Positions 14,627 through 35,747 of a stretch of 64,000 nucleotides of DNA are shown in pieces. Under the pieces are notes generated by a model that was not told the DNA's origin, made no database searches, and saw only the letters and a list, made by a program, of their open reading frames with translations. Origin of the DNA: Deltaproteobacteria bacterium (GTDB taxonomy: Bacteria > Desulfobacterota > Deferrimicrobia > Deferrimicrobiales > Deferrimicrobiaceae); contig JBLNEW010000027.1 in the NCBI GenBank assembly GCA_050263095.1, positions 25,485 through 89,484 on the forward strand, in the 5' to 3' direction. Every line of letters begins with the position of its first letter. Position 1 is the first letter of the stretch. The translations under genes and the position numbers were made by a program.

Positions 14627-15535
14627 CTACTGGGATGTAGAATATATTTGAATCCTGCTGTTTCCACGATCTGCGATGAATATGAATCCATTGTCATTTA
14701 CGCAAATTTGCGAAGGATAGTGCAGAAGCCCCTCTTTCCACCCCAAGTTCAATTGACGTCCCCTGAAGGAACCGTCGCGTCCCAAAATAACGATGCCGCT
14801 GCCGTTCTGATCAACTAAGAAAAGGTTTCCTCGATTGTCGGCTGCAATTGCAACGGGAAAATCTACATCTTCCTTCAGGCTTTCCGTGAGGGGTATTATT
14901 GAGGAAGAACCGGCGACTGACGTATAGACCCTCCTCCCGGTGCTATCGATAATGTAAAGATTGCCTGATGAATCTACCGTGAGATCGGAAAAGAATCCGT
15001 AATCTTCCGGAAAGGAGATCTCCCGTTGCACTTTGCCATCCGGCTGCAGAACTATCACTTTTTCAGACGATATGTCGAGGACGTATAAATTATCTTTTTT
15101 ATCTATGGTCATGCTTTTCGGCACGATGCCCCGCTGCGACGTTATAGTCGAAAAGTCGATATATCCCTTGAATTCTCCTCCAGAGGAAATTCTTCCGATT
15201 TTGCGATGTTTCCCATCAAGAACAAAAATATCCCCTATTGAATTCATCTGGACCCGTATGGGGTAAGGCAATTGAGGCAAGGAAATCTCGGAACCCGGAT
15301 TCAGGGTCTCCCCTGTGAAATTGAAACGTATAAGACGACCGTTACCAGTGTCAGCAACCACCAGAAGAGGCTTCTCGTTGCAGCTCACACCTTCCGGATG
15401 TTTCAGACCCGTTCCGCCCTCATCCGTATAACCGGATATCGCCGGCTTCAATTTCATCGTTTCCGCCGAAAACGAAGGAACCGGAGCAAAAAGGGCAATC
15501 AATGCGGGGGCGACATATTTTAAATATTTTCTCAC
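14627..15535 (-). CDS. Secreted NHL-repeat beta-propeller protein
   Basis: Six NHL-type repeats (LVVADTGNGRLIRF, IFVLDGKHRKIGRI, LYVLDISSEKVIVL, LYIIDSTGRRVY, LFLVDQNGSGIVIL, IFIADRGNSRIQIY). Signal peptide after a GTG at 15535, with GAGGTGA 4 nt upstream. An alternative ATG lies at 15559. Confidence 0.65.
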   Translation of the reverse strand: MRKYLKYVAPALIALFAPVPSFSAETMKLKPAISGYTDEGGTGLKHPEGVSCNEKPLLVVADTGNGRLIRFNFTGETLNPGSEISLPQLPYPIRVQMNSIGDIFVLDGKHRKIGRISSGGEFKGYIDFSTITSQRGIVPKSMTIDKKDNLYVLDISSEKVIVLQPDGKVQREISFPEDYGFFSDLTVDSSGNLYIIDSTGRRVYTSVAGSSSIIPLTESLKEDVDFPVAIAADNRGNLFLVDQNGSGIVILGRDGSFRGRQLNLGWKEGLLHYPSQICVNDNGFIFIADRGNSRIQIYSTSQ

Positions 15536-15539
15536 TTCA

Positions 15540-16811: not shown

Positions 16812-16821
16812 GATTTCTCCT

Positions 16822-18801: not shown

Positions 18802-18829
18802 AATCTCTCCCCGTTGGCGTGCAGAAAAA

Positions 18830-20524
18830 TTATTTCACGAAATTTGAGATTATATCCTGTATTTGGGTATCGCCGGCAAGCACCTTGATCTCCGATGCCG
18901 CTCGCAGTTTTGCCGCATACTCTTCAATTGCGATTTGAAGGTTTTTATTAAACAATTTGCTTTTGATGTCCCCTTCCACCGAATTGAAAGGCTTCGGCCT
19001 GGAGGGGGTGACATCACGAATATAGAAAACATATATATGCCCTTCGGGACTCGTATAAATCCGAAAATCTCCAGGATTTGCCCCCGATACTGCTTTTCGT
19101 ACGTCATTCGGAATTTCGTCAAGCGGTAAAGCTTCTTCATCAAATTTCAGGAGATTTACCGCAATATCCTTTGATACTTGCCCGGAAGCATTCTCCATTA
19201 TCCAGAGGAAATCGGCTCCTTTCCTGAGCTTTTCGACAGCATCCAAGGCATATTCCTTATTTACGAAAACCAGGCTCTTAATTTTTAGAGATCCCGGAAG
19301 CGTATAATCCGCGATGTGCTCTGCGAAATAATTCTTTACTTCCTCATCTTCGACTTTAATCCCTGGAACAATAACATTTCTGATGAATGTACCAAACAGG
19401 ATGCTTCTCCTGTATTCTTCAACCTTATATTTGTATATTTTCATCCGATCAATTTTAAGTCGTTTCGCTTCCATTTCATAAACCGTTTTCATTACGATTT
19501 CATCGAGAACTTCCGCTTTTCTCCTGTTCACTTTCTTTTTTTCGCTTGCCCGTTCAACCCCGTGGAAAAATTTCTTTTGCAAGCTCTCAGAAAGACTTGA
19601 GACTGTTACCTGCTTGCCTCCCTTGATCCTGGCAATGATCCGGTTATCTCGCATAAGCGTCCCGTAATCCGGCTCAGGCACATCATAATCCAAGCCATCG
19701 AGGAGTTTCCTGTCCAGCTTCACATATTTTTTCTTCAATGCTTCCGAGTACGCCTTTAATGCGCGCAGTTTTTTTGCCTTTAAAGCTTCCTCGCGTGCAA
19801 GGGCAAGCGCATCGCTGTTTTCTGGAAAGCGGACATCCTCCAACATGCTTATGGAAAACCCGTTTCCGATTTTTACGATAGAGGTAATCGCGCCTATTTC
19901 AATCATGGATATTGCTTTTGCGACTTCCGGGAGCAGATCTTTATGTTTAATATACACTCCTTCTTGCCCGCCCTTGGCTTTCCCTTCACTGGCCAATTTC
20001 TTCGACAGAGACTCGAAATTCCCTCCTGATTTAATATCATCCTGGAATTTTCTTGCATCTTCCTCTGTGTTAATGAGAACGGAGGACAATTTCACTTCCT
20101 TGATCGATTCCCGATATAGTTTCCCGACCTCTTTTTTGTCCGGAGTTTTTATGCCCCTTATATGGTATGAATACAGCATCTGTCTGAGCGTAGAATTTTG
20201 ATACGTCGCAATATCTTTTATTACTTCATCGAGTTGGTCCAAACCGATGTTTTTCGATTCTTGAATGAACAATTCCATATTAATAAGCCGGTCGAGAAGT
20301 TCCGACTGGGTTTTCCGTACCGTTGTTTCTTCCTCGGACACGCCTTCATGCAGGGAAACAAGCGCTTTTTCGAATGCTTCGCGCGTTATCGGTACACCGT
20401 TCACGGTGGCAAGCGCAACATTACCGCCTCTCCCCCGCCCCTTGGCAGAACTCGTGAATCCCGTAGCGAAAAAAACAAATAACAATCCAAGCGCAATCGA
20501 TGCCGATAGAGTAGATTTCCTCAT
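18830..20524 (-). CDS. Periplasmic SurA/PrsA-like peptidyl-prolyl cis-trans isomerase (parvulin domain) chaperone
   Basis: Signal peptide. A long SurA-N-like helical region followed by a parvulin-type domain (...GGQEGVYIKHKDLLPEVAKAISMIEIGAITSIVKIGNGFSI...). Lower G+C than its neighbours. Confidence 0.65.
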   Translation of the reverse strand: MRKSTLSASIALGLLFVFFATGFTSSAKGRGRGGNVALATVNGVPITREAFEKALVSLHEGVSEEETTVRKTQSELLDRLINMELFIQESKNIGLDQLDEVIKDIATYQNSTLRQMLYSYHIRGIKTPDKKEVGKLYRESIKEVKLSSVLINTEEDARKFQDDIKSGGNFESLSKKLASEGKAKGGQEGVYIKHKDLLPEVAKAISMIEIGAITSIVKIGNGFSISMLEDVRFPENSDALALAREEALKAKKLRALKAYSEALKKKYVKLDRKLLDGLDYDVPEPDYGTLMRDNRIIARIKGGKQVTVSSLSESLQKKFFHGVERASEKKKVNRRKAEVLDEIVMKTVYEMEAKRLKIDRMKIYKYKVEEYRRSILFGTFIRNVIVPGIKVEDEEVKNYFAEHIADYTLPGSLKIKSLVFVNKEYALDAVEKLRKGADFLWIMENASGQVSKDIAVNLLKFDEEALPLDEIPNDVRKAVSGANPGDFRIYTSPEGHIYVFYIRDVTPSRPKPFNSVEGDIKSKLFNKNLQIAIEEYAAKLRAASEIKVLAGDTQIQDIISNFVK

Positions 20525-20611
20525 GGATTCCTTCCTGACGACATCATTTGATGCCGTCCTCCGACAAGTTTGTCGCAGGAATGGAAACTAAAAAATCGTT
20601 TATAAAAAGAT

Positions 20612-23600
20612 TCAGTCGCTGTCGGCTGATCCCAGCGCCCGTTCGATTACCTTATCGGTCATTTCCGCAGCGAGGGCATGGGATGTAGAAACTTTTCCCC
20701 AATCGAATAGAAACATGCAGTCGCTCCCGGTATTATAACTGGTGGAAGACCACGCCACCTTTTTTTTATTCGTGTCGATCGCCTGGCTTGAAAAATTCAC
20801 TAGCGGAAAGCCTGCCGGACCGATCGAATCCTGATAATCCCTCACGCTTCCGTAAAAAACCAGATCGGCATCCATCTCTTCACGCAGCAAGGCCGCCTGT
20901 GGAAGGGATAGTCCTCCCTCAAGGATCATCCGAGAACGCAATATGGCCATCCGAACTTCACCCGGATCGATCACGACAAGATCCCCTCTTTCTGCAAGAT
21001 GTTTCAAAAAATGCAGACGCATGATCTCACCGGCGTTTTTACGGGAACTATCGTTGAAAAAGGGAAGGACCGCGACCGATAGCGTTTTTCCGGTGCCTAG
21101 CGCAAAGTCCTTATTGCGAAAGAACTCCTTCGGATGGAATCGTTCACTTCTGCCGACACCGGAGCTGCGTCCAGTATTTTTTTTGATTCCACCAGTCTCT
21201 CCTGATAAAAGATGGCCGCTCATGGAATCTAGTATTTTGTTTACGACCCTGTCTCGGAGTATCCGTGAATCTCTTTCAAGACCTATGCCCAAGATTCCGG
21301 GAGCATCGTTTCCTGCCACGACGATGCTGTCCATCCAGATAATGGAGGCTTTCCTTCCGGTAGAGATAAGTCTGGATGTCAGGGCTACTCTTGGTGGGTA
21401 GTCTTCCGAAAATAAATCGATCGATATGGCAAGGACCGCGGCCGCGCCGGTTTCCTGTCTCAAGGCCTGCCCTGTATCCTTCGAAAGACCGGCGGCATAA
21501 CGGATCCGATGCCGTGTCATGAACTTTTCAAGGATTACTTCATCGACCACCTTGATCCCGTTCCTTTTCATTCGAGTTATAACGGATTGATTGATCTCTT
21601 TTACAGGAGCGGCGACACCGCTAAGGTTCTCAATCGGGAACACGGCGATCAACGAATCCAACCCGAGTTCTCTTGTAATTTCAAATCCCGAAGACCAGCC
21701 GCTGTCCGCGGTATTTCCAAGGGCGTCACGCAGTACCACCTTGACCCGATAGAAACCGGGTTGCTCGGGTCTCCATTCCAACACCGGCGACGGCCCTTTC
21801 TGCACGATGATCTCTTTGTTCCTTCTAGAAACATGGAACTCGTAGACGTACGCGCCGATGCCTCCGGAAGCGACTGCGGTCCACCGGATGACTGCGGATA
21901 CCGCTCTTTGTGGAAACGACACGTCAGGAACGAGGTTTATTACAGCGGGAGGCAACACAACCGCGTACGGCGGCGACCAACCGCTGCTTGCGATATTGCC
22001 CAGGGCATCACGCACAATCACATTTACCCGGTAACTGCCAGGCTCCCGAGGCGCCCATTCCAAGCTTGACGAAGGCCCTTCCTGCAATATTCTTTCTTCT
22101 TTCCCGTCGGATACCCGGAACTCGTATCTTTTTTCACCTACCCCCCCCGATGTCTTTGCAGTCCAACGGATGGTTGTTGTTCCGGCGGCTTGAGGGGGTT
22201 GCCTGTCGGGTGCCAGTAAATCGACTTTCAGTTGAGGCATCACCATGTATTCCGGAGACCATCCTCCATCCAGCCTGTTCCCGAGGGCATCCGTCGCGAT
22301 AACTTTTACTCGGTGTAGTCCCTCTTTCATCGGCGTCCACGCCAATACGGGCGAAGAACCCTTCTGCTCGCTTACCTCTTCCGTTCCATCAAAGCTTCGA
22401 AATTCATATAATCGGCTGCCGGCACCGCCCGACACGTCGGCCTTCCAATTAATCGTTGTGGTAACCGCAGTCTGAGGGGAGGGCTTGTCCGGATTAAATG
22501 ATTTCAGCAAAAGCGGCGGGGCAACTTCGTATTCCGGAGACCAACTACTATCCGCGACATTGCCGTGTAAATCCTTGACAGACACCTTCACACGGTAGAT
22601 GCCGGCATCTTGAGGTACCCATATCCATGTGGGCGACTCTCCCTTCTGCATTAATACGACCTCGTTATCCTTATGGAGATAGAAGGCGTAAGTCCGGGCG
22701 CCCATCCCTCCGTCGACGACCGAGATCCAGCGTATCTTGGCTGCATTCGCAACTTGTGGCGATGCCTTGTCTGATCCAAGAGAAGAAACCGAGAGTGGAG
22801 GAATAAATGTATATTCCCGGGACCATCCGCTATCCGCGGTATTGCCATGCGAATCGCGAATTATGACTTTTATACGACAGGTTCCGGCCACCGACGGTAT
22901 CCAATCCAAGGCCGGTGACGGCCCTTTCTTTCTGAAAACTTCCTTGCCGTTCCGTGTAATATGGAACTCGTATTCGAGCGTCCCGATTCCGCCAGAAGCT
23001 GCCGCAACCCACCTGAACGGATTCGAAGCTACCGCCGGAGACATATTATCTGATCGTAACGACTCAATAAACAACGGTGGAACAACTTCGAAAGGCGTTG
23101 ACCAGCCGCTGTCGGCCATGTTACCGGCTGAATCCCGTACTACAACCATCACACGATAGCTTCCGGCCTTTTTAGGCAACCAGCGCCATTCGTGTAACGG
23201 GCCCCTCTGTTCCAGCGTCTCTTCGACCGCATTTAAAATGCGAAATTCATAAGTCAACGCGCCAATACCGCCGGATGCAACAGCGGACCATCGAATCTGT
23301 GACGAAACCGCAGCCTGCGGAGAATTTCTGTCCGGCTTCAATGACACTATTTCAACCTTGGGGGCCACTTCAAACTCCGATAACCAGCCGCTGTCTACGG
23401 TATTTCCCAGCGCATCCCGAACGATCACTTTCAACCTATACGTTCCGGCATCCATTGGAATCCAGTCCCATGCCGGCGAAGGCCCCTTTTGAACCATAGT
23501 CTGCTTGTCGCCTGCCATGGTATGGAACTCATATGTGAATGGGCCTACCCCACCCTCTGCAGACGCCGTCCATCTGATTTTTGAGGAGGATGCCGCCTGT

Positions 23601-24034
23601 GGTGGAGCCTTGTCGGGTTTCATCGTTTTCAATCTTAGCGCCGGGAAAATTTCATATCCCGGCATCCAGCCGCTGTCTGCGATATTGCCCAGTGCATCCC
23701 GCACAACCGCCTTCACGCGATAAGTACCCGCATGCAAGGGTCTCCAGCCCCAGATATTGGAACTATCCTGCTGCTCTACAGACTCTTCGGTCCCCTTAAG
23801 GGTATGGAATGCAAATGTATATGGCGCTTCCCCTCCTGATGCCGAGGCCGACCAAAGGATTGTCGTCATCGTTGCCGCTTGCGGAGACACCTTGTCCGGC
23901 GAATGCAGTTTCACCGCCAGAACGGATGGGATTTCCCGCGAAGGCAGTTGTGTTGCCCGCGAGGAGGCGCAACCGCACAAAACAACGGTGGCTATCAGTA
24001 GGCAGAGATAACTATTTGCCGAATAGTTTATCAA
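20612..24034 (-). CDS. Giant lipoprotein: eight tandem Y_Y_Y-like (Ig-like) repeats plus two C-terminal LpoB/CsgG/DUF799-like domains
   Basis: Lipobox-like LCGCASS. Eight repeats of about 95 aa, each with ...PQAA..IRW.A.ASGG.G.YEF.....E...QKGPSP.W.W.P...G.YR.KV.VRDALGN.ADSGWS..FEV.P. The C-terminus has two copies of a (L/I)AV(F/L)PF.N.S...(40-60 aa)...VVI.PGEV... module also seen in the next gene. Confidence 0.7.
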   Translation of the reverse strand: MINYSANSYLCLLIATVVLCGCASSRATQLPSREIPSVLAVKLHSPDKVSPQAATMTTILWSASASGGEAPYTFAFHTLKGTEESVEQQDSSNIWGWRPLHAGTYRVKAVVRDALGNIADSGWMPGYEIFPALRLKTMKPDKAPPQAASSSKIRWTASAEGGVGPFTYEFHTMAGDKQTMVQKGPSPAWDWIPMDAGTYRLKVIVRDALGNTVDSGWLSEFEVAPKVEIVSLKPDRNSPQAAVSSQIRWSAVASGGIGALTYEFRILNAVEETLEQRGPLHEWRWLPKKAGSYRVMVVVRDSAGNMADSGWSTPFEVVPPLFIESLRSDNMSPAVASNPFRWVAAASGGIGTLEYEFHITRNGKEVFRKKGPSPALDWIPSVAGTCRIKVIIRDSHGNTADSGWSREYTFIPPLSVSSLGSDKASPQVANAAKIRWISVVDGGMGARTYAFYLHKDNEVVLMQKGESPTWIWVPQDAGIYRVKVSVKDLHGNVADSSWSPEYEVAPPLLLKSFNPDKPSPQTAVTTTINWKADVSGGAGSRLYEFRSFDGTEEVSEQKGSSPVLAWTPMKEGLHRVKVIATDALGNRLDGGWSPEYMVMPQLKVDLLAPDRQPPQAAGTTTIRWTAKTSGGVGEKRYEFRVSDGKEERILQEGPSSSLEWAPREPGSYRVNVIVRDALGNIASSGWSPPYAVVLPPAVINLVPDVSFPQRAVSAVIRWTAVASGGIGAYVYEFHVSRRNKEIIVQKGPSPVLEWRPEQPGFYRVKVVLRDALGNTADSGWSSGFEITRELGLDSLIAVFPIENLSGVAAPVKEINQSVITRMKRNGIKVVDEVILEKFMTRHRIRYAAGLSKDTGQALRQETGAAAVLAISIDLFSEDYPPRVALTSRLISTGRKASIIWMDSIVVAGNDAPGILGIGLERDSRILRDRVVNKILDSMSGHLLSGETGGIKKNTGRSSGVGRSERFHPKEFFRNKDFALGTGKTLSVAVLPFFNDSSRKNAGEIMRLHFLKHLAERGDLVVIDPGEVRMAILRSRMILEGGLSLPQAALLREEMDADLVFYGSVRDYQDSIGPAGFPLVNFSSQAIDTNKKKVAWSSTSYNTGSDCMFLFDWGKVSTSHALAAEMTDKVIERALGSADSD
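21634..23899 (-). repeat. Intragenic tandem repeats (8 units of about 285 nt) encoding the Y_Y_Y-like domains
   Basis: Recurrent protein blocks VRDALGN(I/T)(A/V)DSGW and YEFH at regular spacing on the minus strand. Coordinates are approximate. Confidence 0.6.
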
Positions 24035-24587
24035 GAAGATCGTTGACCGCCTTTTCAGTAACGATGTTCATCGGCTCGCCGCCTCCACCGAACAGACGGT
24101 CTGCTGTGGAGACTCCGCCTTTGGTGGAAGAACCAGACCACACAATCCTTCCAGTGCGGCCTTCGATCATCTGAAGGCTGACGGAGACTATATTGGCCAC
24201 GCTCGTTCCAGAACGAACCTCTCCGTATTCCCGCACAGTTCCTGTAACCACAGCGTCTGCCTTTACGATCGTCGCTAACTTCAGTATTTCTTCGGTTGTC
24301 GGCGCTGCCGGAGCAGTAATTCCTGCCCTTGATATCCCGCGCCCCACTTCTCCGGGGGGTATAACGTAGACTCCCTGGGTAGCGAGAAGCATAGTGATGA
24401 AAACATCTCTAACACGGTCAGCGGCGGATGTTTCCCTCGAAAGGTTGGCGAAAGGCATTACGGCCACGTTCTGCACAAGCCCAAAATCCATGTTCGGGTC
24501 CCGGAAGGATCCCTGAGTCGTGCCAAGGGTGGAAGCGCATCCGACTGAAACCACTATAAAGACGAGGATGATTCCGATTTTTTTCAT
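24012..24587 (-). CDS. Small lipoprotein with an LpoB/CsgG/DUF799-like domain
   Basis: MKKIGIILVFIVVSVGCAS lipobox. NVAVMPFANLSRETSAADRVRDVFITMLLATQGVYVIPPGEV...AVVTGTV matches the two C-terminal modules of the giant lipoprotein. The listed ORF start at 24620 is an upstream extension. Confidence 0.6.
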   Translation of the reverse strand: MKKIGIILVFIVVSVGCASTLGTTQGSFRDPNMDFGLVQNVAVMPFANLSRETSAADRVRDVFITMLLATQGVYVIPPGEVGRGISRAGITAPAAPTTEEILKLATIVKADAVVTGTVREYGEVRSGTSVANIVSVSLQMIEGRTGRIVWSGSSTKGGVSTADRLFGGGGEPMNIVTEKAVNDLLDKLFGK

Positions 24588-24646
24588 CCTGTCCCTCGTT
24601 TCTGTCGAGATAATTACCATTATATTCCGCTAAACCCCGCGCATGC

Positions 24647-26872
24647 TCAGAAAGCAAGATGCAAATTCGTACTCACGACCTCGTTCTTATTTTTTTGGGA
24701 AGGAGCATCGTTGTTAAGATACTGATAGGACAAATCAACATACCTACCCCTGTTGCCGCCTATATTCCACCGAAGGCTGGGGATGATTCTCCTTTCCCTG
24801 CTGTTGTCTTCCGTATGGATCGTCTCGTTGTAATTAAAGTTGAGGTTAAGTGTCCCGTCCGGGAAAGGTGACCAGTTCGCCGAATAATTCCATGTTGTTG
24901 TATTGGTCGAATTGCCCAAACTCGTACTCCTGGTTCTCTGCAATGAGCCGAAGATATAGAGAGTGCGGAGTGGATTATAGGTAACCGAAATCCCGCCAGT
25001 CCGCTGTTTATCAGTAGTCTCATCGGAGTTACCCCCAAGCGTCCGCATCGTGTCCGACTCAAAGTACGCGAGATTGACGGTCATCGTTCGATGGGGAACC
25101 AACGTCAGTCCTGCATTTAATTGAATGGTCTCGATCTTCGCAGCCGTACTCGATTTCTGTACGCTTCCTCCCGCTCCTATATTTGCATCCACACCATCAT
25201 ATAAATGCGCACTATTGACAAAGGTGATGGAGTTCGTTTCGTTTTTTTCCTGCCCGGATTCCCGCGTCTGTCCCGTGTATACGACAGAGTGGTGGAGCGT
25301 TTGCAACGGGGTCGCCGAGATCGAAGCGGTATATGTGTAACCCAACTGCTGTTCCCCTGTCTGATCCTTGCTGTCCTCCCGCGAAACCCTTGCGAATCCT
25401 GAAAATATCCGCCCGAACTCGCGGTTGAATGAAAGCCCGTTGGATAGATCGTATGCCGAAGGCAAGGAGGAATTCTTAAGCAGGAAGTACGAAAGCTCGT
25501 AATACAGGTTCTGATTTTTCAAGAGCTTCGCGCGTGCATTAAAGTTGTAGCGATGATTGGTTCTGACCACCTTAGGGTTTATATCGGCGGCCTGCCTCCT
25601 CAGCGTAGCCTGGAGTTCCGTCACGAGGATGTTCGGGAAGTTGTTCGCAAACGGAACGGCCGACGACAGCGGTCTGGTAACGACTTTGATGTATCGGGTT
25701 GTCACTGTATCGAAGTCGATCTGGAACCTGGTCACGAACGGCCCGAAAACCGCCGGGAACACCGCCCTGTGGAGATTCCAGGTCCTGTTGTCTTCGCTAG
25801 TATAGACTTCCCAGGAAAACGTTCCGGCGATATCTTGCGGAATATCCCTGTCGACCCAAACAAGGAGGGAATTCACCTGTGTATCCAGAAAAAAATCCAA
25901 GCCCATGCTTCGTGGTCGGGAGTCCCCCGAAGGCGGTGGCAGTCCGAGATTGATTCCCGTCCCGGCGGCGAAATCCCCATCAATGAGGGCCGGATTGGAG
26001 TCAAGAGTAATCAGCAATGGAGTGTCGTTTATCGATGAAAGACCGGCGACCGGAGAAAGAGGAAAGCTTACCTCGCCTGAACCTCCTTTGGAAAATTCCG
26101 TATCACTATGAAAAATATAATAATTCGAACTAATCGAGATCCGGTTTTTCCACCACGATTCCGAATAGGTCACGCTGCCCTCGTGGGACGTATTCCGGCT
26201 TTCGATATTTTGCAGATTGTTGCGGTTTTTGTTTATTGCTCCGCCGTATCGTAGACTAACCGATTTTACAGGTTGATAATTCGCGGTCAACTGGAAGCTG
26301 TCATCGGTACCATCGTTTATCCTGCGTTCCTTGTCGAAAGTGTCCGTATGGAAATATCGGAAAAATGTTTCGGGAAACCCATCCGGCCTCCACCCCAGGG
26401 TTGCGAAGTATGTCTGTCTCACTGTCGTTAGCGGTGTGGTTGTAGAGGTCTTGACTTCTTGTTCCGTCCGGCTGTATCCCCCTTCGGCCTGATATAGAGG
26501 CGTTCTAAGGTTCAGGATTATGAATGGCCTCATTTTCGTATCGGCAATATTGTTCTCACGACCTTCAAGTTCCGTTATCAATGCATTCCGCTCAAACAGC
26601 CCGCCTGCGACTACGCCAAGATTGGGGAAAATACGTTTGTCGAGCGTCAAAGAATACCGCTGGATGAACGAATCGCTTTTCGATTCGGTTGTAAGTCCGG
26701 CTGCATCCTCGTTCTTGGAAGCCGCCTTCGTGAATATGAAATCCATATATCCGTTCATCCCATCCGCTGCGACTTGCTCAACGATAAGGACCGAAATCAT
26801 AAATAATACAGCAGAGAATCGCAGCGCAGGGAAATTCCTTTTTCCCGATGGTATCCTTGCTTCCTTTCGCAC
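24647..26872 (-). CDS. Large (741 aa) outer-membrane beta-barrel protein, uncharacterised
   Basis: Signal peptide. Extensive alternating beta-strand pattern rich in Y, N, T and G. C-terminus ...VVSTNLHLAF, ending in the terminal Phe signature of outer-membrane barrel proteins. Sits 5 nt downstream of the YVTN gene. Confidence 0.6.
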   Translation of the reverse strand: MRKEARIPSGKRNFPALRFSAVLFMISVLIVEQVAADGMNGYMDFIFTKAASKNEDAAGLTTESKSDSFIQRYSLTLDKRIFPNLGVVAGGLFERNALITELEGRENNIADTKMRPFIILNLRTPLYQAEGGYSRTEQEVKTSTTTPLTTVRQTYFATLGWRPDGFPETFFRYFHTDTFDKERRINDGTDDSFQLTANYQPVKSVSLRYGGAINKNRNNLQNIESRNTSHEGSVTYSESWWKNRISISSNYYIFHSDTEFSKGGSGEVSFPLSPVAGLSSINDTPLLITLDSNPALIDGDFAAGTGINLGLPPPSGDSRPRSMGLDFFLDTQVNSLLVWVDRDIPQDIAGTFSWEVYTSEDNRTWNLHRAVFPAVFGPFVTRFQIDFDTVTTRYIKVVTRPLSSAVPFANNFPNILVTELQATLRRQAADINPKVVRTNHRYNFNARAKLLKNQNLYYELSYFLLKNSSLPSAYDLSNGLSFNREFGRIFSGFARVSREDSKDQTGEQQLGYTYTASISATPLQTLHHSVVYTGQTRESGQEKNETNSITFVNSAHLYDGVDANIGAGGSVQKSSTAAKIETIQLNAGLTLVPHRTMTVNLAYFESDTMRTLGGNSDETTDKQRTGGISVTYNPLRTLYIFGSLQRTRSTSLGNSTNTTTWNYSANWSPFPDGTLNLNFNYNETIHTEDNSRERRIIPSLRWNIGGNRGRYVDLSYQYLNNDAPSQKNKNEVVSTNLHLAF

Positions 26873-26877
26873 CCAAC

Positions 26878-28278
26878 CTACCTTTCTCCCATGATTGTCA
26901 CCCGGAACGGCTCTTCTCCTACTTCGATTTCCGCAAAGGCTTCCTTGCTCACCAAACGGATTCCCTTGACCGTTTTTTCTCCCGGAAGCACGAGGAAAAG
27001 GCTGTTCCCCTCACCGTCGATCGCCATAAAGGCGACCTCGCCCGGCACGGCGATAAAATCGATGGGAAGAAACGAGAAGGGATCGTAGATATCAATCTTG
27101 CCGGTATGCTGTCGCGCCAGGTAGATCCAGTTGTTTTGGTGATCCACCTTCAACGCGGTCGCTCCTGTTCCCACGCGGATCTTGTTGATGATCGAAAAGG
27201 AAAATGGATTAATCACGTATAAATACGGGGAAGATCGATGAGCGACATAAAATCGGCTCCCGTCCCGATTGAATCCCCCACTTACGGGCTCCGAATCCGT
27301 GGATATCGTTGCCGCCACCTGTTGGCTTGGCAGGTCGATCACAGAAACAGAGTTGGATAAGCGGTTCAATATGTACGCTCTTCTGCCGTTCTGATCTATT
27401 TGAAGCGACTCCGGTCCTTTCCCCACATTGATTCGCAAAACTTCAATCAGGGACGCGGTGTTGATCACGCTTACCGTGTTCGATCCGACATTTACGGAAA
27501 GAAGTTTTCCTCCATCCGGCGTCAATGCAAGTTCGCGCGGATAATCTCCGCCGGCGAGATGCAGGCGGTTGTCGACCTCGCCCGTGAGGACGTCGATGAC
27601 TTCGACGGCATCTTCTCCGGAAAGGGCGACATATAATTTTGCTTTCCTTCGGTCCAGCGCCAACCCGGAAGGTGCCGTTCCGGTGGGGACCACGGAAATC
27701 ACATGTCCGGTCAGCTTGTCAAATATCGTCACCGTGTTCGAGTCGCGGCTGGAAGCATACCCAATCAATCCACTTGGAATTTTACCCGGGATGTCGATGT
27801 CAAATACGGGTGATATGCGGAAGCCGCCGTGAAGGGAATCCTGATATCTATATGAAAGTTTAAGGACGGTGCCGCGTTTCCTGCCAACCGTGAAGGGGAT
27901 CACTGTACGAGTGGCTTCCGAAGGCACAAGCACCACAGCTTCCCCTTCCTCCCCTTTCAGCGAGGCAGACTCGATCTTAAAGGCGATGCCAGCATACCGC
28001 CCGGGAGGAAGCGTACCGGAGGCGATCATTCGCTCCTTCGTAACCTCGATTCGATTCACGTCCGTTAAGGAAAGAACCATAGGAAATTCCGCCCCGTCTT
28101 CGCGCAGCGCGGAAATTCCTCCGATGCGGAATGAAAGCCGTCCCGCTTCTTGGGAGAGAGGGGCGATATACAGATAAATCGCTCCATCGTCCTCAAGTGC
28201 AGGTCTGACAAGGGATTTTTTTGCCTGGCATCCCCATAACGGCAGAAATACAGCAAGAATGATCGCAATGCGCTTCAA
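26878..28278 (-). CDS. Lipoprotein with a YVTN-family beta-propeller
   Basis: Lipobox LWGCQA. Repeated YVTN-like units of about 40 aa (SGLALDRRKAKLYVALSGEDAVEVIDVLTGEV; PRELALTPDGGKLLSVNVGSNTVSVINTASL; SLQIDQNGRRAYILNRLSNSVSVIDLPS...). Confidence 0.65.
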   Translation of the reverse strand: MKRIAIILAVFLPLWGCQAKKSLVRPALEDDGAIYLYIAPLSQEAGRLSFRIGGISALREDGAEFPMVLSLTDVNRIEVTKERMIASGTLPPGRYAGIAFKIESASLKGEEGEAVVLVPSEATRTVIPFTVGRKRGTVLKLSYRYQDSLHGGFRISPVFDIDIPGKIPSGLIGYASSRDSNTVTIFDKLTGHVISVVPTGTAPSGLALDRRKAKLYVALSGEDAVEVIDVLTGEVDNRLHLAGGDYPRELALTPDGGKLLSVNVGSNTVSVINTASLIEVLRINVGKGPESLQIDQNGRRAYILNRLSNSVSVIDLPSQQVAATISTDSEPVSGGFNRDGSRFYVAHRSSPYLYVINPFSFSIINKIRVGTGATALKVDHQNNWIYLARQHTGKIDIYDPFSFLPIDFIAVPGEVAFMAIDGEGNSLFLVLPGEKTVKGIRLVSKEAFAEIEVGEEPFRVTIMGER

Positions 28279-28375
28279 GACTTGCTCCGGTTTTTTTCGC
28301 CAATCATTCGATGACGCGATGTAACAAGCCTATCCCACAGAGCGTTTGCGGGCAATTGATAAAAGGTTATCGACT

Positions 28376-28412
28376 AATAAAAAGGGGCCGGCGTACAAGG
28401 CCGGCCCCTTTG
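28376..28412 (-). terminator. Rho-independent terminator downstream of the OmcS-like gene
   Basis: Perfect 9-bp GC stem GGGGCCGGC / GCCGGCCCC (28384-28392 / 28400-28408) with loop GTACAAG. On the minus strand it is followed by a T-run (rc of TAAAAAGG). Confidence 0.7.
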
Positions 28413-28459
28413 ATTATGCCTTCCTCGCCGGATTGTTTAATTCCGGCAAGCCCGCGAAC

Positions 28460-29710
28460 TTAATCCTTCGCGTGGCACTTGTTGCAAAGAACTCTCTGAT
28501 ATGCGCCAAAGCTGGATGCAGGGCGGTTATAGTATGCGGCATTTGCCTGCTCCTGGTTGCGGCCAATCGAGCTAGACGGCCAAAGCACGTTGCCGCCAGA
28601 TACAGTGGTAAGGAACTCGCTCTCACCGTACCAACGCAGCATTTCCGGGAATCCGGAGGCATGGGCGCGGTGGCAAGAAAGGCACATCACCTGGGCGCCT
28701 TGTGTGGGATAGGTCAAGTTTGAGTCATTGTCATTCGCAAAAGACTTGATCACATTGTATGAACCGGAGTTTACGGCGTACGGTACAAGCGAAAGATACG
28801 AGTTGTCGCTGGTGTTCGTCATTTTCCCCGAGCTCATATACGTCTGGTAGTTGCTTGCAAATGTGTTATTCAATGTTTGGTCGACCGGGTGGACGGTATT
28901 GCCCGAGCTGTGCATGCCCGCATGGCACGTCTTGCACCAATTGCCCCATGTGGTATTGCCGGCTGCGTTGCCGACTCCGTAGGAGACGCGCACCTGGTTG
29001 TCCGACTCATCGTGGTTATAGCTGCTGGGCGATATCGCCGCAGGAGCTCCAAGGTAGCCGATCGCGCCAGCCGCAGTCGTCGAGTACCCGGAGCCGGCAA
29101 GCAGACGATATGTACCTACGGCTGCTGTAGCAGTCGGAGCCGCTTTCGTCGTGGAGCCGGAGCCCATAATGGGATATCCCGTCTTGACGATAGTATCATC
29201 AACCAGCCTGCGGAACTGTCCGTGCTGATCATGGCAGGAATTGCAGTGAAGCGCGTTGGACTGGAATGACCCGCCGGGAGCCTGGGCGTTCGTGGCGTCG
29301 GCGGTCATACCATGGTCGACGGCAACGATGTTATGTCCGTGGCTGTCACCTGTTTCATTCGTCGTTTCGCCGTGCGCGGTGAAGGTGAAGGGAATGCGAA
29401 CCCACTGAAAATCTCCGCCCGGCGTATAATTGGCGGGTTTCCCGCCCAGGGCGATTCTGTCCGCATCGGTGGTGAGAATATGATAGCTGCTGGGCGTAGT
29501 AGCGCCCGCTACCATGTGGCAGTTAAGACAAGTGGAGCTTGGATCGCTGCCTTTCAGCAATAAAGTTCCGCTGCCTGCGGCGGGGGAATGCATGCTATGG
29601 CAGCCGGCGCAATCGGCAACGCCGCCCCCGTGAAATGCGTAAGTAGTGCCCGCCCCTAGCGCCAAAAAGGCCGCCGCAAGGATGATGACGCTTACTTTCA
29701 TCGCTTTCAT
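28460..29710 (-). CDS. OmcS-family hexahaem c-type cytochrome (candidate extracellular nanowire subunit)
   Basis: Signal peptide, then the mature N-terminus FHGGGVADCAGCHSMH. Six CxxCH motifs (CAGCH, CLNCH, CNSCH, CKTCH, CLSCH, CNKCH). Conserved blocks shared with Geobacter OmcS as I recall it: SSTCLNCH, PSSYHI, TPGGDF.WV, GHNIVA, LHC.SCHD.HG.FRR.VD, G.YR.L.G.GY, CLSCHRAHASGF, AAYY.R, F..YQR.LCNKCHAKD at the C-terminus. Thr/Ser/Gly/Ala-rich. Confidence 0.8.
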   Translation of the reverse strand: MKAMKVSVIILAAAFLALGAGTTYAFHGGGVADCAGCHSMHSPAAGSGTLLLKGSDPSSTCLNCHMVAGATTPSSYHILTTDADRIALGGKPANYTPGGDFQWVRIPFTFTAHGETTNETGDSHGHNIVAVDHGMTADATNAQAPGGSFQSNALHCNSCHDQHGQFRRLVDDTIVKTGYPIMGSGSTTKAAPTATAAVGTYRLLAGSGYSTTAAGAIGYLGAPAAISPSSYNHDESDNQVRVSYGVGNAAGNTTWGNWCKTCHAGMHSSGNTVHPVDQTLNNTFASNYQTYMSSGKMTNTSDNSYLSLVPYAVNSGSYNVIKSFANDNDSNLTYPTQGAQVMCLSCHRAHASGFPEMLRWYGESEFLTTVSGGNVLWPSSSIGRNQEQANAAYYNRPASSFGAYQRVLCNKCHAKD

Positions 29711-29942
29711 TTCCCCTCCTCTTTCGCTCCGGCAGCCCGGCCGTCCTTCCTTTCAGCCTATCCAGGACCCGTCGGCTTTGCGCCCCCACCTCTCGATGGG
29801 TTTACCCTTTTCGGAGGAGTGTCTTGGGTTGAATGCCGGTAACCACGCCCTCAATGACTCTTTCTCCTCTGAACGAGAATCTCGATTCCCCTGCAAGCCA
29901 CCCCCTCTCCCTCATGACATGGATTCCACTGCCTTCAATCAA

Positions 29943-30935
29943 TCAGTTCGCGGTAACGGAAAAAACGCTGACTCCAGCCTTCGGAGACTGCGTGACGTAG
30001 ACCTGTCCATTGTTCCCTAACGCTACGGACGCAGGAGCGATCAGGTTGCCGGGTGCGCTTCCCCTAAATCCAAACTCCGTGAGGAATTTGAAGTTTCGGT
30101 TGAAGACCATCACAACGCACTTCAACTTATCGGTCACAAAAATATTTCCGTCGTTATCCACCGCGATACCGGACACAACGCCGAACATTCCGGGGGCGCC
30201 GCCTGGCTTTCCGAAAGAAAATACTTTTCCCTCAGGGGAAACCTTGTATGCCTTGAAATTCACTGGCACCGTGAAGTAGAAGTTTTCTTCCCGGTCGACA
30301 TAGAAACCAAAAAATTCGGTATCGGGGCGCTCGTTCTCATCAACCCCGATAATCGCGCCGAAATTGAAACCCTTTTCGAAAACTCCCCTTTTATCCGTAA
30401 CTATCGCCGTCATCCCTCTCAAGTTGGCGAAAAAGAATCGCCCATTGCGGTAATACATGCAGTTCGGTCCATATTCGGAATATTCCGGGGGGAGGTTCGA
30501 TAACGTGATTTTTTCTATAAGTTTTCCCCGGTAATTACACCTGCAAAGGTAAAACCTGCGCTTCGCGATTCCTTCCGCGGAAGGGTAGTCGGAAGGGGGA
30601 TAATCATAGGAAAGCAGATAGATGTCGCCATCCTCGTCTACGACAATCCCGTAAATCCCGCCCAGTTCCTGCGTCTCAAGGAAAGAATAGATTTCCATGC
30701 CGCTTTCGTTGAAAATACGGACCGATCCCCCGTCGTCAACGTAGACCTCATTGTGTTGGCTATCGACGGAGACCCTCACCTGACTGTATGGAATAGTGCC
30801 GGAAAAATCAGAAAGTTTATAAAGATATCTGGCCGTGATTCCCGATTGAGCGATAGATGGAAATATCGAAAATATGAACGGGACCCACATAAGTGAAAGA
30901 AAAAGTCGAGTCGCATTATTTATAGCAGCATGCAT
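29943..30935 (-). CDS. Secreted NHL-like beta-propeller protein (first gene of the cluster)
   Basis: NHL-type units (GIVVDEDGDIYLL, GIAVDNDGNIFVTD, NNGQVYVTQ). Signal-like MHAAINNATRLFLSLMWVPFIFSIFPSIAQS. The listed ORF starts at 30977; the ATG at 30935 gives a cleaner signal peptide. Confidence 0.55.
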   Translation of the reverse strand: MHAAINNATRLFLSLMWVPFIFSIFPSIAQSGITARYLYKLSDFSGTIPYSQVRVSVDSQHNEVYVDDGGSVRIFNESGMEIYSFLETQELGGIYGIVVDEDGDIYLLSYDYPPSDYPSAEGIAKRRFYLCRCNYRGKLIEKITLSNLPPEYSEYGPNCMYYRNGRFFFANLRGMTAIVTDKRGVFEKGFNFGAIIGVDENERPDTEFFGFYVDREENFYFTVPVNFKAYKVSPEGKVFSFGKPGGAPGMFGVVSGIAVDNDGNIFVTDKLKCVVMVFNRNFKFLTEFGFRGSAPGNLIAPASVALGNNGQVYVTQSPKAGVSVFSVTAN

Positions 30936-31156
30936 GGCGTCGTATGATTCTGCAATGGACATGCCACAACTTAGCATGCAAAATAACCAGCAATATAAGC
31001 CATTTACGGCATTGAGAAACAGCAGAAAAGCATGAGTTGGTGGAAATCCTTATCTCCCCCGGGGAAATCACCAATTGTGTGAATGAAGCAGGTCAGGCAA
31101 GCGGAAAGCTTACTTCGCGTGCGTCAGGTAGAAGAATCGCACGTTAGAATGGGTAA

Positions 31157-31202
31157 TATCACCATATATTCATGGGTGTTATCACCATAGATCCATATGG
31201 AT
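31157..31202. promoter_or_regulatory. Candidate operator repeats in the divergent intergenic region
   Basis: Direct repeats TATCACCATA at 31157-31166 and 31180-31189 (23-nt phasing), immediately followed by the perfect 12-bp palindrome ATCCATATGGAT (31191-31202). An AT-rich 330-nt region between the NHL/OmcS cluster and the REC-PilZ gene. Confidence 0.35.
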
Positions 31203-31311: not shown

Positions 31312-31989
31312 ATGCCTGAAATGCCCAGTAATCGGGTTCTCATCGTCGACGACGATATGCTGATATGTTGGGCGCTCGACAAGGAGTTCGCAGGCCTGGG
31401 CCTTTCGACCCATGTCGTCGAAACGGGGGAGGATGCGCTGGCGGAGTTTCGGCGGCGTCCCTATGACATCGTCTTTCTCGATATCCATCTGCCCGATTCG
31501 AATGGAATAGATCTACTCGGAGAGTTCAACAGGATCGCGCCGGATGCGAAGATCATCATCATGAGCGGCGATGCCAGCGAATCGAACCGGCAACGGGCAT
31601 TGTCGGGCGGCGCTCTGCAGTTTCTCGAAAAACCGTTCGACCTGTCCGAAGTACATGGCATCCTCAACAGTACAAGCGGCGTATACGTGCAGAAACGGAA
31701 GCACCCGAGGCACATCTGCCGCGCTCCCCTCCGTATTTCCATCCTGGAACCCGCGCCTGAAGAAGCGCTATACGACCTTCATAACCTGAGCGCCCTGATC
31801 GCGGATGTCGGCTCGGGGGGCTTGAGACTCCGCACGGAATATCCGTTGAAAGTGGGACAAAACGTCCGGGCGTACGTCTCCGCCGGAAACGATCCGGTCC
31901 TTAAACTAGTCCCCTCGGAAGCCGACGCCGAGGTGGTGTGGGTGGCCCCATCCCAGGAGGGCATAACCGCAGGGCTGAAATTCCTGTAA
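31312..31989 (+). CDS. Response regulator with receiver domain fused to a PilZ (c-di-GMP-binding) domain
   Basis: Receiver domain (VLIVDDD...DIVFLDIHLPDSNG...IIMSG...KPF). C-terminal PilZ motifs RKHPR (RxxxR) and DVGSGGLRL (DxSxxG). Confidence 0.75.
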   Translation: MPEMPSNRVLIVDDDMLICWALDKEFAGLGLSTHVVETGEDALAEFRRRPYDIVFLDIHLPDSNGIDLLGEFNRIAPDAKIIIMSGDASESNRQRALSGGALQFLEKPFDLSEVHGILNSTSGVYVQKRKHPRHICRAPLRISILEPAPEEALYDLHNLSALIADVGSGGLRLRTEYPLKVGQNVRAYVSAGNDPVLKLVPSEADAEVVWVAPSQEGITAGLKFL

Positions 31990-31996
31990 TGCTGAT

Positions 31997-33384
<1,388 letters not shown>

Positions 33385-33388
<4 letters not shown>

Positions 33389-34839
33389 GCCTCTTGCTCT
33401 GCGGGCTTGATGCTCAAGGGGATCCTGATCCTGAAAACCGTGCCGACGGGTGTATTTGATCCTACCGAAATGGTTCCTCCGTGCTGCTCGACCAGCTGCT
33501 TCGAAATCGCCAGCCCCAGCCCGGTTCCCTTCGGTTTCGTGGTGAAAAACGGCTGGAATATCTGGTCGGCGTGCTCCCTGCTGATCCCCTTGCCCGTGTC
33601 GGAAATCTCTACGTGGATCAGATCGGGCCCCTTTTCGAAGTATGTCCTGACGCCGAGCGTCCCGCCGTTCGGCATGGCGTCGACGGCGTTCAGCACTATG
33701 TTCAGGAATATCTGCTGCAGCTGCATCGGATCCGCCATCGTTTCCGGAACGGGCTGAAGGTCCTTCGCGATGACCATGGCGTTGGGGCGTTCCGGCGCGG
33801 CCGTTCGGCTTTTCACGTAAAAGGCGAGAATGGTGTTAATGAGATTGTTGACGTTCAGCTCCGCAAGCCGCGGCTTGGCCGGCTTGGCGAAATTAAGGAA
33901 GTTCTTCATAAGGGATTCGAGCCGCACAACCTCCTGGCCGACCTTTTTCACGACGCCCCGATCTTCCTCCGACAACCCCGCTTCCTCGGACAGGACCTGC
34001 ATCGCCACCTTGATCCCCGCCAGCGGGTTCTTGATCTCGTGCGCCAGGCCCGCCGCCAGCTCGCCTACAACCACCAGCTGTTCCGTGCGCTGCATCTTGT
34101 GCATCTGCTCCTTGAGCGAACCGGCCATCTCGTTTATGGAGGACGCCAATTCCCCGAACTCGTCCTTCAAGCCTACCACTCGGTGGTCCAGGTCCCCACC
34201 TTTCAACTTCCTGGTGGATTCGACAAGCACCTTGACCGGTCGTGTCAGGCCCGTTATGAAGATAAACCCCAGCAGCGCCGAAACGAGCGGGCCGATCGCC
34301 ACTAGCCCGTAGAGGATGTATTTCGTCCGGGAGATCTGGTCCATCGCCTTTTGGGTGTTCTCAGCAAGCCGGGACGTGGTTATAGCGATCATGTCCTGGA
34401 CCTTGACTATCAGTTTGTCGCCGGTCCTGAATGCGGCGTCCTTTTCCGCGGAGAACCTGGAGGCGTTGGCCCTTATGGTCAACACCCTGCTCAGCTCGTC
34501 CTTATACTTTTCCGTCTCGGCCTTGAGATCCTTAAGCCGCTCCGTCCCGCGGGGCGAGTGGTGGCAGTCGAAACAGGTGTCGATGGTCCTGCCCATGTTC
34601 ATGACATTCATCACAACGGTTTCGAAGCTTCTCGAATAGCGCGTATCCATCAGGGTGAGGTCCGACTGCACCCGTTTGATCTGCAGAAGGTAGTGCTCTC
34701 TCAGGATTTCGACTTGATGGAGTGTTATCAACTTGTCCAGGTCGGCCGTGGCGGACCGGATCGTCTGGACGACATAAACTCCTGCCAGGAGGAATATGAC
34801 GGAATAAATGGACAGTCCGAGAACGATTTTTCTTTTCAT
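33385..34839 (-). CDS. Sensor histidine kinase with a periplasmic haem-c (CxxCH) sensor domain, HAMP, HisKA and HATPase
   Basis: Two transmembrane helices flank a periplasmic domain of about 150 aa containing CFDCHH. H-box ELAAGLAHEIKNPL. G-boxes DTGKGI, GTGLGL. Its ATG overlaps the stop of the upstream binding-protein gene (TGATG). Confidence 0.8.
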
Positions 34840-35747
34840 CAGTCGTTGGTGTAATCGTAGGAGGTCAGGTTCAGGTGTATGGCTTCGGCATACTTCACTA
34901 CGACGTCGTAATCCTCGTTCGTGGTCTCCGTGAACCTCAGCGCTCCCAAGCGTTCAAGCGCCTTTTTCCCTTCAGGGTCCGTGTGCATGCTCAGGAGGGC
35001 ATCCTTCAGCCGCATTCGCATCGGTTCATCTATGTCCTTGCGCAGGGCGATCGCGTTCTCCGGCACGTCGGGGGACCGTTCCAGGACCGACAGCTCATCC
35101 CGTATCCTTGGATGCTCCGCTGCCATCCGGTTGAAAACCGTGTTTTTCGCCGCTCCTATATCCGCCTTCTTGTTCAGCACGTCGTATATGGCGTCCTCGT
35201 GCGTGCCGGCGAAATAGGCCTCCTTGAGGTATACCTTGTAATCCGATATTCCGTGCCTGCGAAAGTATTCCAACGGAAGAAGATAGCCGGCGGTCGTCGC
35301 CTTGTCCACAAACGCGAAACGCTTTCCCCTCATGCCGCCGATATTCCTGATGCTGCTGTCTTTCCGAACTATGATCAGGCCATGATACGTGGAGGTATTA
35401 TCGTTAGCCACTGGCCGTGCGAGGACTTCCACGCCGAGCTTCGCGTGGGCAAGCGCATAGGTGAAGCTGCCGAAAAAGGCGCCGTCCAGCCCGGCCGATT
35501 TGAAGTTATCGATGATGTTCCCGTATCGCCGCAGGATCTTTAGCTTTACCTTCGCGCCTGTTTTCATGGAGAGATAACCGGCCAGCGGCTCGTATCGTTC
35601 GAGCTGGTTGAATATGTTCTGCTCGGGGATAAGCCCGATCAATAAAGTCTTTCGCGGAACCGTCTCGGATTTCGGGGGGGGCGCCTCCTGGGCGCACCCT
35701 GCCAGGACAAAAAAGCAAAGGAAAGCGGTAATCAGTCGTCGAATCAT
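34839..35747 (-). CDS. PhnD-like periplasmic substrate-binding lipoprotein (phosphonate/phosphite-binding family), probable sensor partner
   Basis: Lipobox LAGCAQ. PhnD/SsuA-type periplasmic-binding fold pattern (LLIGLIPEQN...YHGLIIVRKDS...FAFVD..TTAGYLLP). Co-operonic with the kinase and response regulator. Confidence 0.6.
   Translation of the reverse strand: MIRRLITAFLCFFVLAGCAQEAPPPKSETVPRKTLLIGLIPEQNIFNQLERYEPLAGYLSMKTGAKVKLKILRRYGNIIDNFKSAGLDGAFFGSFTYALAHAKLGVEVLARPVANDNTSTYHGLIIVRKDSSIRNIGGMRGKRFAFVDKATTAGYLLPLEYFRRHGISDYKVYLKEAYFAGTHEDAIYDVLNKKADIGAAKNTVFNRMAAEHPRIRDELSVLERSPDVPENAIALRKDIDEPMRMRLKDALLSMHTDPEGKKALERLGALRFTETTNEDYDVVVKYAEAIHLNLTSYDYTND

Follow-up and report, generated by a model that had tools for sequence, protein, structure and literature searches.

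Does a bacterium outside Geobacter carry, in one place, what is needed to build an extracellular cytochrome filament (nanowire) like the one that Geobacter sulfurreducens assembles from the hexahaem cytochrome OmcS? The question is raised by a stretch of 64,000 nucleotides (the window) of contig JBLNEW010000027.1, from assembly GCA_050263095.1 of a Deltaproteobacteria bacterium placed in the Deferrimicrobiaceae, in which a first-pass annotation made from the sequence alone had pointed to one minus-strand gene, here the omcS-like gene, as a candidate for a nanowire subunit. The evidence obtained here comprises protein family, fold, ligand conservation, gene context, a riboswitch and a terminator, and from it we infer both polymerisation of the cytochrome and the route of its export. 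Our preferred reading is that its product serves as the structural subunit of an extracellular cytochrome filament of the OmcS type, and that the gene forms part of a self-contained nanowire module; we put the probability of this at about 0.68, or roughly two in three.

A member of the OmcS family

The open reading frame (ORF) begins with ATG and encodes a precursor of 416 residues, 391 of which remain in the mature protein, with CxxCH haem-binding motifs (n = 6) at precursor residues 34, 61, 156, 259, 343 and 409. Ser, Thr and Gly together make up 31% of the mature chain, in line with the first-pass description of a Thr/Ser/Gly-rich protein of about 390 residues with six such motifs. The signal peptide (MKAMKVSVIILAAAFLALGAGTTYA) is of typical Sec type and ends in TYA, and the predicted mature start, F26, corresponds in a phmmer alignment to residue 1 of the OmcS chain in 6EF8, so that both proteins would be cleaved before Phe-His; F26 and H27 are invariant in 60 homologues. 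NCBI already holds the exact protein as "MAG: cytochrome C [Deltaproteobacteria bacterium]" (MAG, metagenome-assembled genome), with the next relative 75% identical and the others at most 56%.

When all chain sequences of the Protein Data Bank (PDB) were searched with phmmer, the single match was OmcS of G. sulfurreducens (GSU2504; 6EF8/6NEF; E 2.4e-95), aligned over its full length (precursor residues 26-416 to residues 1-407 of the mature OmcS chain). The two proteins are of the same length class and are identical at 187 of 382 globally aligned positions (49%), and all six CxxCH motifs align in order and spacing. Every OmcS-like block named in the first-pass annotation was found and aligns with the corresponding block of OmcS, namely FHGGGVADCAGCHSMH, SSTCLNCH, PSSYHI, TPGGDFQWV, GHNIVA, LHCNSCHDQHGQFRRLVD, CLSCHRAHASGF and FGAYQRVLCNKCHAKD. 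Similarly, an AlphaFold2 model built from 60 homologues (mean local confidence, pLDDT, 72; predicted template modelling score, pTM, 0.77) has a predicted fold for which Foldseek returned a sole significant match in the PDB, again OmcS (6ef8_A, E 4e-26, template modelling (TM) score 0.78/0.79), the two sharing an otherwise unique fold. The window cytochrome therefore belongs to the OmcS family of hexahaem cytochromes, as had been proposed, and the search against OmcS that the annotation called for returned that protein at full length and no periplasmic cytochrome.

About half of the residues differ from those of OmcS nonetheless, and there are several smaller insertions and deletions, the deletion of an 11-residue loop after OmcS His16, and a lack of OmcS His53, His309 and other variable His. 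The nanowire proteins OmcE (four haems) and OmcZ (eight haems) are without sequence or fold similarity to the window protein, and neither was matched in any search. Their likeness lies in the logic of their gene clusters, which also combine an extracellular multihaem subunit with beta-propeller lipoproteins, multihaem cytochromes and a large barrel protein, and, for OmcE, in the use of an inter-subunit His.

Pfam and NCBIfam contain no OmcS-specific model and gave only generic CxxCH domains (Paired_CXXCH_1 and fragments of cytochrome c3/c7), as might be expected of a soluble periplasmic multihaem electron carrier with a function unrelated to nanowires. These generic domain matches, however, are short motif matches, whereas the only full-length match in both sequence and fold is OmcS, and the low haem density (6 in 391 residues) and the gene context are as in OmcS. 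Moreover, soluble periplasmic cytochromes, which the first-pass annotation had named as the best matches to be expected if it were wrong, were absent from the PDB matches of phmmer and Foldseek alike. A soluble carrier, already disfavored, is in our view extremely unlikely.

Haem ligands and the contact between subunits

Related loci were collected by searching genome contigs with OmcS as the query, taking one genome per species, which yielded 236 relatives, and 78 loci were kept. G. sulfurreducens is not among these relatives (best identity 67%), and its paralogues were compared via presumed orthologues from Geomonas, Citrifermentans and MAGs. The 78 loci supplied 116 OmcS-like proteins for the analysis of ligand conservation.

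All 12 axial haem ligands of OmcS are His: 11 belong to the chain that holds the haem, and the remaining one, at haem 5, is supplied by the neighboring subunit (Filman et al., PMC6584659). Across the 116 homologues the Cys and His of the six motifs are invariant, and exactly six His outside CxxCH are invariant or nearly so (OmcS H2, H16, H110, H147, H257 and H335), with counterparts in the window precursor at H27, H41, H126, H163, H274 and H350. Since six motif His and six conserved His make up the required twelve, the latter six are the predicted distal ligands, and bis-His ligation of all six haems is likewise predicted for the window cytochrome, with ligand identities drawn from conservation. 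OmcS His16 is known as the inter-subunit ligand, which is consistent with one neighbor-supplied ligand on haem 5. In the alignment, OmcS H16 is matched by precursor H41, and OmcS H332 by precursor H347, the proximal His of haem 5. The haem-ligating His of OmcS, for whose absence the first-pass annotation had advised looking, are conserved here, including the counterparts of His16 and His332.

Five other OmcS His (H53, H63, H139, H247 and H309) vary even among close relatives. His53 and His309 were considered as possible missing ligands and rejected because both columns are variable across the family, and His63 and His247 were rejected as ligands because they are missing in close OmcS relatives.

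A counterpart of His16 occurs in 113 of the 116 homologues. The three proteins without it are divergent paralogues encoded outside the OmcS-companion (osc) gene clusters described below (L007, 3014-4255, minus strand; L058, 1972-3201, minus strand; L017, 585-1766, plus strand; L numbers denote related loci), two of which have seven CxxCH motifs, and they are candidate non-polymerising relatives. AlphaFold2 confidence for the window cytochrome is lowest along the N-terminal arm of the mature chain, near the haem-5 motif and towards the C-terminus, regions that one would expect to become ordered only on polymerisation; as the models are without haems, we give this little weight.

A complete set of companion genes

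The omcS-like gene lies in a minus-strand cluster that runs from 30977 down to 12522 and includes an osc-type block (14627..30977, minus strand; Table 1). It is the sole OmcS-like or hexahaem gene of the osc-type cluster and the sole OmcS-like gene of the window. To assess synteny, proteins of the window were compared by BLAST with all ORFs of the related loci, and the order of the cluster genes proved to be conserved in 34-66 of 81 loci (48-66 for most of the genes), the distal NHL propeller being found in 4 loci and the tetratricopeptide repeat (TPR) protein in 22. Among these loci are ones from Geomonas, Citrifermentans bremense, Anaeromyxobacter, Nitrospirota, Rokubacteria, Acidobacteriota and Desulfobulbales.

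We gave osc letters by gene order, anchored on two products, the prolyl isomerase for H and the 26-haem cytochrome for I. For the osc operon (Shen et al., 2025, via PMC13194489 and PMC12977616), roles are given for OscH in folding, for OscE, OscF and OscG in secretion and for OscD in morphology, and OscI (GSU2495) is described as a protein of ~70 kDa with 26 haems (PMC13194489; PMC12977616). Judged by gene order, the window cluster is a complete osc-type cluster from oscB to oscK and agrees with this published operon. The oscE-like product would be a putative outer-membrane barrel, by analogy with the published role of OscE and from its C-terminal aromatic residue.

Elsewhere in the island discussed below, two tandem hexahaem cytochromes with c7-type domains are encoded on the plus strand. 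Homologues of these lie a few kilobases (kb) from the osc clusters of three related loci (L047, L038 and L081), and they could be periplasmic donors that charge the filament.

A riboswitch before the gene and a terminator after it

The leader of the omcS-like gene contains a GEMM-I class aptamer that matches Rfam model RF03167 over its full length (positions 1-80; 62.6 bits, gathering score 59, E 2e-12) and ends 16 nucleotides (nt) before the ATG. Scans of 20 related loci, drawn from several phyla, with nhmmer and Rfam placed a GEMM-I aptamer at the corresponding position before omcS-like genes in every one, the best model being RF01051 for some and RF03167 for others (Rfam clan CL00126). The omcST operon of G. 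sulfurreducens has a GEMM-I riboswitch that is reported to sense cyclic GMP-AMP (cGAMP) as well as cyclic di-GMP (c-di-GMP) (PMC6456294); a literature search found no ligand assignment for the GGC variant. Both the companion cluster and the riboswitch, neither of which the first-pass annotation mentioned, strengthen the nanowire reading.

In minimum-free-energy folds of the window leader, the sequence CUCCUCC pairs with the Shine-Dalgarno AGGAGG. Since this candidate anti-Shine-Dalgarno also overlaps the 5' strand of aptamer stem P1, the riboswitch is probably a translational ON switch, with both ligand and polarity predicted, and it would act, unlike that of OmcS, through the Shine-Dalgarno and not through a terminator.

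Downstream, the first-pass annotation had described a very strong terminator, and a GC-rich hairpin is indeed found 49 nt after the stop codon: its stem (AAAGGGGCCGGC / GCCGGCCCCTTT) has 12 pairs, nine of them G-C, closes a 7-nt loop and is followed by the T-run TTATT. By a crude criterion, terminator-like hairpins lie 3' of omcS-like genes in 44 of 122 cases, most near relatives included. A hairpin in this position fits a high output of the subunit and a low output of the assembly machinery.

Which member of the family

The main residual uncertainty for the filament-subunit reading is the placement of the protein within its family. Of four paralogues in G. sulfurreducens, OmcS alone is proven to polymerise, and OmcT, OmcJ and OscC (GSU2501) are homologous hexahaems of unknown function that sequence methods separate poorly (PMC12977616). 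The window gene might thus encode a non-polymerising paralogue of the OscC, OmcT or OmcJ kind, a monomeric or accessory hexahaem, extracellular or periplasmic, that would depend on the osc machinery or assist it (as anchor, primer or cap, for instance) without making up the bulk of the filament.

Several observations count against a filament subunit. By synteny the gene stands where oscC would, with the oscD-like gene next downstream, and it is the GSU2501-type hexahaem that an eight-gene block, GSU2500-GSU2493, always follows (PMC12977616). In neighbor-joining (NJ) trees the protein lies outside the G. sulfurreducens OmcS clade, on a long branch with moderate bootstrap support. His16 is almost universal in the family and so does not set the proven polymeriser apart from the rest; an OmcS-type filament subunit needs the His16 arm and a haem-5 site, but their presence does not suffice. 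The list of distal ligands comes from conservation and was not read off coordinates, and the riboswitch scores just 3.6 bits over the gathering score of the GGC-variant model.

The same trees, however, keep the window protein apart both from OmcS and from the oscD-adjacent clade of Geobacterales, presumed to be OscC. They place it at the base of a single-copy, oscD-adjacent clade with members from Desulfobulbaceae, Desulfurivibrionaceae, Thermodesulfovibrionia, Rokubacteria, Acidobacteriota and related MAGs, and its sister group falls inside this clade in 150 of 200 bootstraps, a count that rises to 185 when a small neighboring group is added. With this nearest clade it shares 54% identity on average, with OmcS 48% and with the oscD-adjacent proteins of Geobacterales 42%. 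Trees and identities suggest that it is neither a strict GSU2504 orthologue nor an OscC-type protein. With OscC-type hexahaems, compared through presumed orthologues (e.g., L032, Citrifermentans bremense), it shares family, haem number and the position directly upstream of an oscD-like propeller, but not its place in the tree, and it is closer to OmcS than to them.

Other evidence also argues against a non-polymerising paralogue. As the gene is the sole OmcS-like gene of cluster and window, such a protein would leave an assembly machine with no nearby subunit. The protein retains the His16 arm and the haem-5 site, and its gene has the riboswitch and strong terminator that, where a locus has several omcS-like copies, typify the leading and strongly expressed one. 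Moreover, GSU2501-type proteins may themselves build an uncharacterised nanowire (PMC12977616). We consider a non-polymerising paralogue to be unlikely, though it is a serious alternative, and retain the filament-subunit reading, under which the window gene appears, from sequence comparison, to represent a lineage in which the osc machine has no plausible cargo other than a single hexahaem.

Unlike omcS, the window gene is single copy, without adjoining omcT or oscC paralogues, in a non-Geobacter host of ~63% guanine plus cytosine (GC). Its nearest relatives, in the groups named above, share 50-56% identity and the same oscB-omcS-oscD arrangement. OmcS-like cytochromes of Desulfobulbales and Desulfurivibrionaceae are likewise encoded by single genes and are implicated in iron-oxide respiration outside Geobacter; in Desulfurivibrio, an OmcS-like protein is the cytochrome most induced during iron-oxide respiration (PMC12545173). 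By its description, DA_402 of Desulfurivibrio alkaliphilus, with seven motifs and a TM score of 0.56 to OmcS (PMC12545173), stands apart from the window protein, which has six motifs and a score of 0.78.

A compositional island

The cluster lies in a segment of ~28 kb (~3.6-31.8 kb) with a GC fraction of 0.49, while the flanks (1-3.6 and 31.8-64 kb) have 0.62-0.63. The minimum, 0.35, falls in the TPR gene. Besides the osc-type cluster and its TPR protein, the segment contains the two c7-type hexahaems, a tRNA-Val and two spermine-synthase-like proteins, and the flanks carry housekeeping and other genes, including CysRS, NifS/NifU, AnmK and thioredoxin; the CysRS is 100% identical to that of a "Deltaproteobacteria bacterium" MAG, and its nearest named relatives are Candidatus Deferrimicrobiaceae, at 65-66% identity. 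In related genomes, in contrast, the GC of the cluster equals that of its flanks, and the segment was therefore probably acquired horizontally, to judge from its composition. Such acquisition fits the patchy distribution of omcS (PMC12977616).

The same contrast in GC could mean that the module is a silent or decaying acquired island, or a chimera of assembly or binning, and that the host makes no use of the gene. Yet the ORFs of the osc-type cluster are all intact, and signal peptides, lipoboxes, riboswitch, Shine-Dalgarno and terminator have been kept. Independent assemblies of three other data sets yielded the same sequence, and one of them runs past the PilZ gene into the next gene, apparently the sigma-54 regulator, and the higher-GC regulatory genes on the right side are conserved beside osc clusters elsewhere. 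A silent island or a chimera is thus very unlikely, and an intact module with a filament subunit remains the reading that we prefer.

Proposed working of the module

If the window cytochrome is a filament subunit, its precursor would be exported by Sec, and removal of the 25-residue signal peptide would expose the N-terminal Phe-His. Six c-type haems would be attached at the six CxxCH motifs, each with bis-His ligation, five distal His coming from the own chain and mature His16, on the N-terminal arm, reaching to haem 5 of the neighboring subunit, where mature His322 (the counterpart of OmcS His332) would be the proximal ligand. This donation would lock subunits head to tail and give a continuous haem chain. 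Folding and export would fall to the osc-type products, with the OscH-like isomerase, an outer-membrane channel and lipoproteins of the OscE/F/G type, and propellers of the OscB/D/K type, and the 26-haem OscI-like, 16-haem OscJ-like and nearby c7-type cytochromes are candidate periplasmic electron feeders. Expression would be gated by the GEMM-I riboswitch, probably at translation, a ligand-stabilised P1 freeing the Shine-Dalgarno from the upstream CUCCUCC, and the hairpin after the gene would keep subunit output high relative to that of the assembly machinery.

A wider proposal, possible but doubtful, is that a complete, riboswitch-gated nanowire cassette (subunit, osc machine, giant periplasmic cytochromes and c7 donors) moved horizontally, as the low-GC segment of ~28 kb, into a high-GC, uncultured, Deferrimicrobia-related lineage, that single-copy oscD-adjacent OmcS-like proteins are ancestral filament subunits and that nanowires are family-wide and not confined to the Geobacter OmcS branch. 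In this proposal, the ancestral role is suggested by the fact that the one hexahaem of the cluster shows all features of a filament former although its place is that of oscC.

Homologues of OmcS are on record from a phylogenetically broad range of bacteria (PMC10954620), and the osc cluster is described as widespread and ancient (Shen et al., 2025, via PMC13194489 and PMC12977616). A filament former from another lineage is therefore less novel than the first-pass annotation implied, and none of the present findings is unexpected, since OmcS homologues and osc clusters are known across many phyla. The window cytochrome is thus a credible candidate for a filament subunit, and proteins of its kind have been reported before as widespread. 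Some added interest lies in its single copy in the oscC position, in the conserved and apparently translational riboswitch and in the compositional island that holds the whole module. If the protein polymerises, this uncultured organism could link its respiration electrically to minerals or to other cells that lie micrometres away. The locus bears on a question from the recent literature, whether wires are also made by OmcS-like proteins other than that of G. sulfurreducens, in particular by those encoded at the oscC position, and it offers a compact parts list for heterologous reconstruction and cryo-electron microscopy: subunit gene, assembly set, candidate feeders, riboswitch and two-component regulator. 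The compositional island suggests, in addition, that the capacity for extracellular electron transfer can be gained in a single transfer event.

Other features of the locus

Table 1. Features of the omcS-like gene, its companion cluster and the surrounding island, in order along the window.
Feature	Position	Strand	Basis or remark
tRNA-Sec	2986-3081	-	near left edge of low-GC segment
Two tandem hexahaem cytochromes, two c7-type domains each	4173-4973, 5326-6114	+	Pfam Cytochrome_C7 x2, six CxxCH each
tRNA-Val	6199-6273	+	inside low-GC segment
Two spermine/spermidine-synthase-like domain proteins, ~1000 aa each, the second also with TPR repeats	6463-9468, 9507-12476	+	
TPR-repeat protein, distal cluster end, no osc letter assigned	12522..14579	-	GC 0.35
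oscK-like NHL-repeat beta-propeller	14627..about 15540	-	Pfam NHL; same position occupied in L055
oscJ-like 16-haem cytochrome	about 15540..16811	-	16 CxxCH; Pfam
oscI-like 26-haem periplasmic cytochrome	16822..18801	-	26 CxxCH motifs
oscH-like SurA/PpiD-type peptidyl-prolyl isomerase chaperone	18830..20524	-	Pfam Rotamase_2, SurA_N; syntenic in 48 loci
oscG-like lipoprotein with Ig-like/PKD/Y_Y_Y repeats, 1140 aa	20612..24034	-	syntenic in 56 loci
oscF-like GNA1162-type lipoprotein	24012..24620	-	Pfam PF05643; syntenic in 58 loci, 54-73% identity
oscE-like 741-aa protein, ends ...NLHLAF	24647..26872	-	no Pfam match; syntenic in 62 loci
oscD-like YncE/YVTN beta-propeller lipoprotein, lipobox LWGC	26878..28278	-	Pfam YNCE, TIGR02276; syntenic in 66 loci
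Intrinsic terminator/attenuator between subunit gene and downstream assembly genes	28381..28411	-	stem-loop and T-run
omcS-like gene, hexahaem c-type cytochrome, candidate nanowire subunit	28460..29710	-	ORF, six CxxCH, OmcS sequence and fold match
Sec-type signal peptide, residues 1-25, predicted cleavage between TYA and FH	29636..29710	-	alignment to 6EF8 chain
Shine-Dalgarno AGGAGG, 4 nt before ATG	29715..29720	-	sequence
GEMM-I class cyclic-dinucleotide riboswitch aptamer, 5' untranslated region	29727..29815	-	Rfam RF03167 (c-di-GMP-I-GGC)
CUCCUCC, anti-Shine-Dalgarno candidate, overlaps 5' strand of aptamer stem P1	29813..29819	-	predicted folds
oscB-like NHL-repeat beta-propeller	29943..30977	-	Pfam NHL; directly upstream of omcS-like genes in 54 loci
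Response regulator with PilZ (c-di-GMP-binding type) domain, divergent	31312..31989	+	Pfam Response_reg and PilZ
PhnD-like periplasmic binding protein, HAMP histidine kinase, sigma-54-type response regulator	31997..35747	-	Pfam

Within the osc-type block, the oscG-like protein is ~3x the usual length, as its homologues measure ~1.1-1.3 kb in most loci; a long version, of 3.4 kb, likewise occurs in L060 (15567-19019). The likely start of the oscJ-like protein is M39 of the listed ORF, followed by a signal-peptide-like segment. The true start of the oscK-like protein lies well inside its listed ORF of 414 residues, which overlaps the cytochrome gene, and a signal-like segment is found near residue 113.

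Regulatory genes lie beside the cluster on its right side. A PilZ response regulator adjoins osc clusters in 15 loci, with up to 70% identity, and the module of PhnD-like protein, kinase and sigma-54-type regulator does so in five (L060, L064, L074, L017 and L006; 60-72% identity). No canonical sigma-54 -24/-12 promoter (GG-N10-GC) was found upstream of the oscB-like and omcS-like genes. Between the oscB-like and PilZ regulator genes, at 31149-31188, there are two tandem 17-nt near-palindromes, ATGGTGATAACACCCAT and ATGGTGATATTACCCAT, which may be a regulator binding site. Farther into the high-GC flank, with no evident link to the cluster, is a type II/IV secretion ATPase with an MshEN (c-di-GMP-binding type) domain (47671-49371, minus strand).

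Homologues of the two spermine-synthase-like proteins were also observed near other osc clusters, in the Geomonas loci L026, L031 and L045 (~50% identity) and in L077 (70%).

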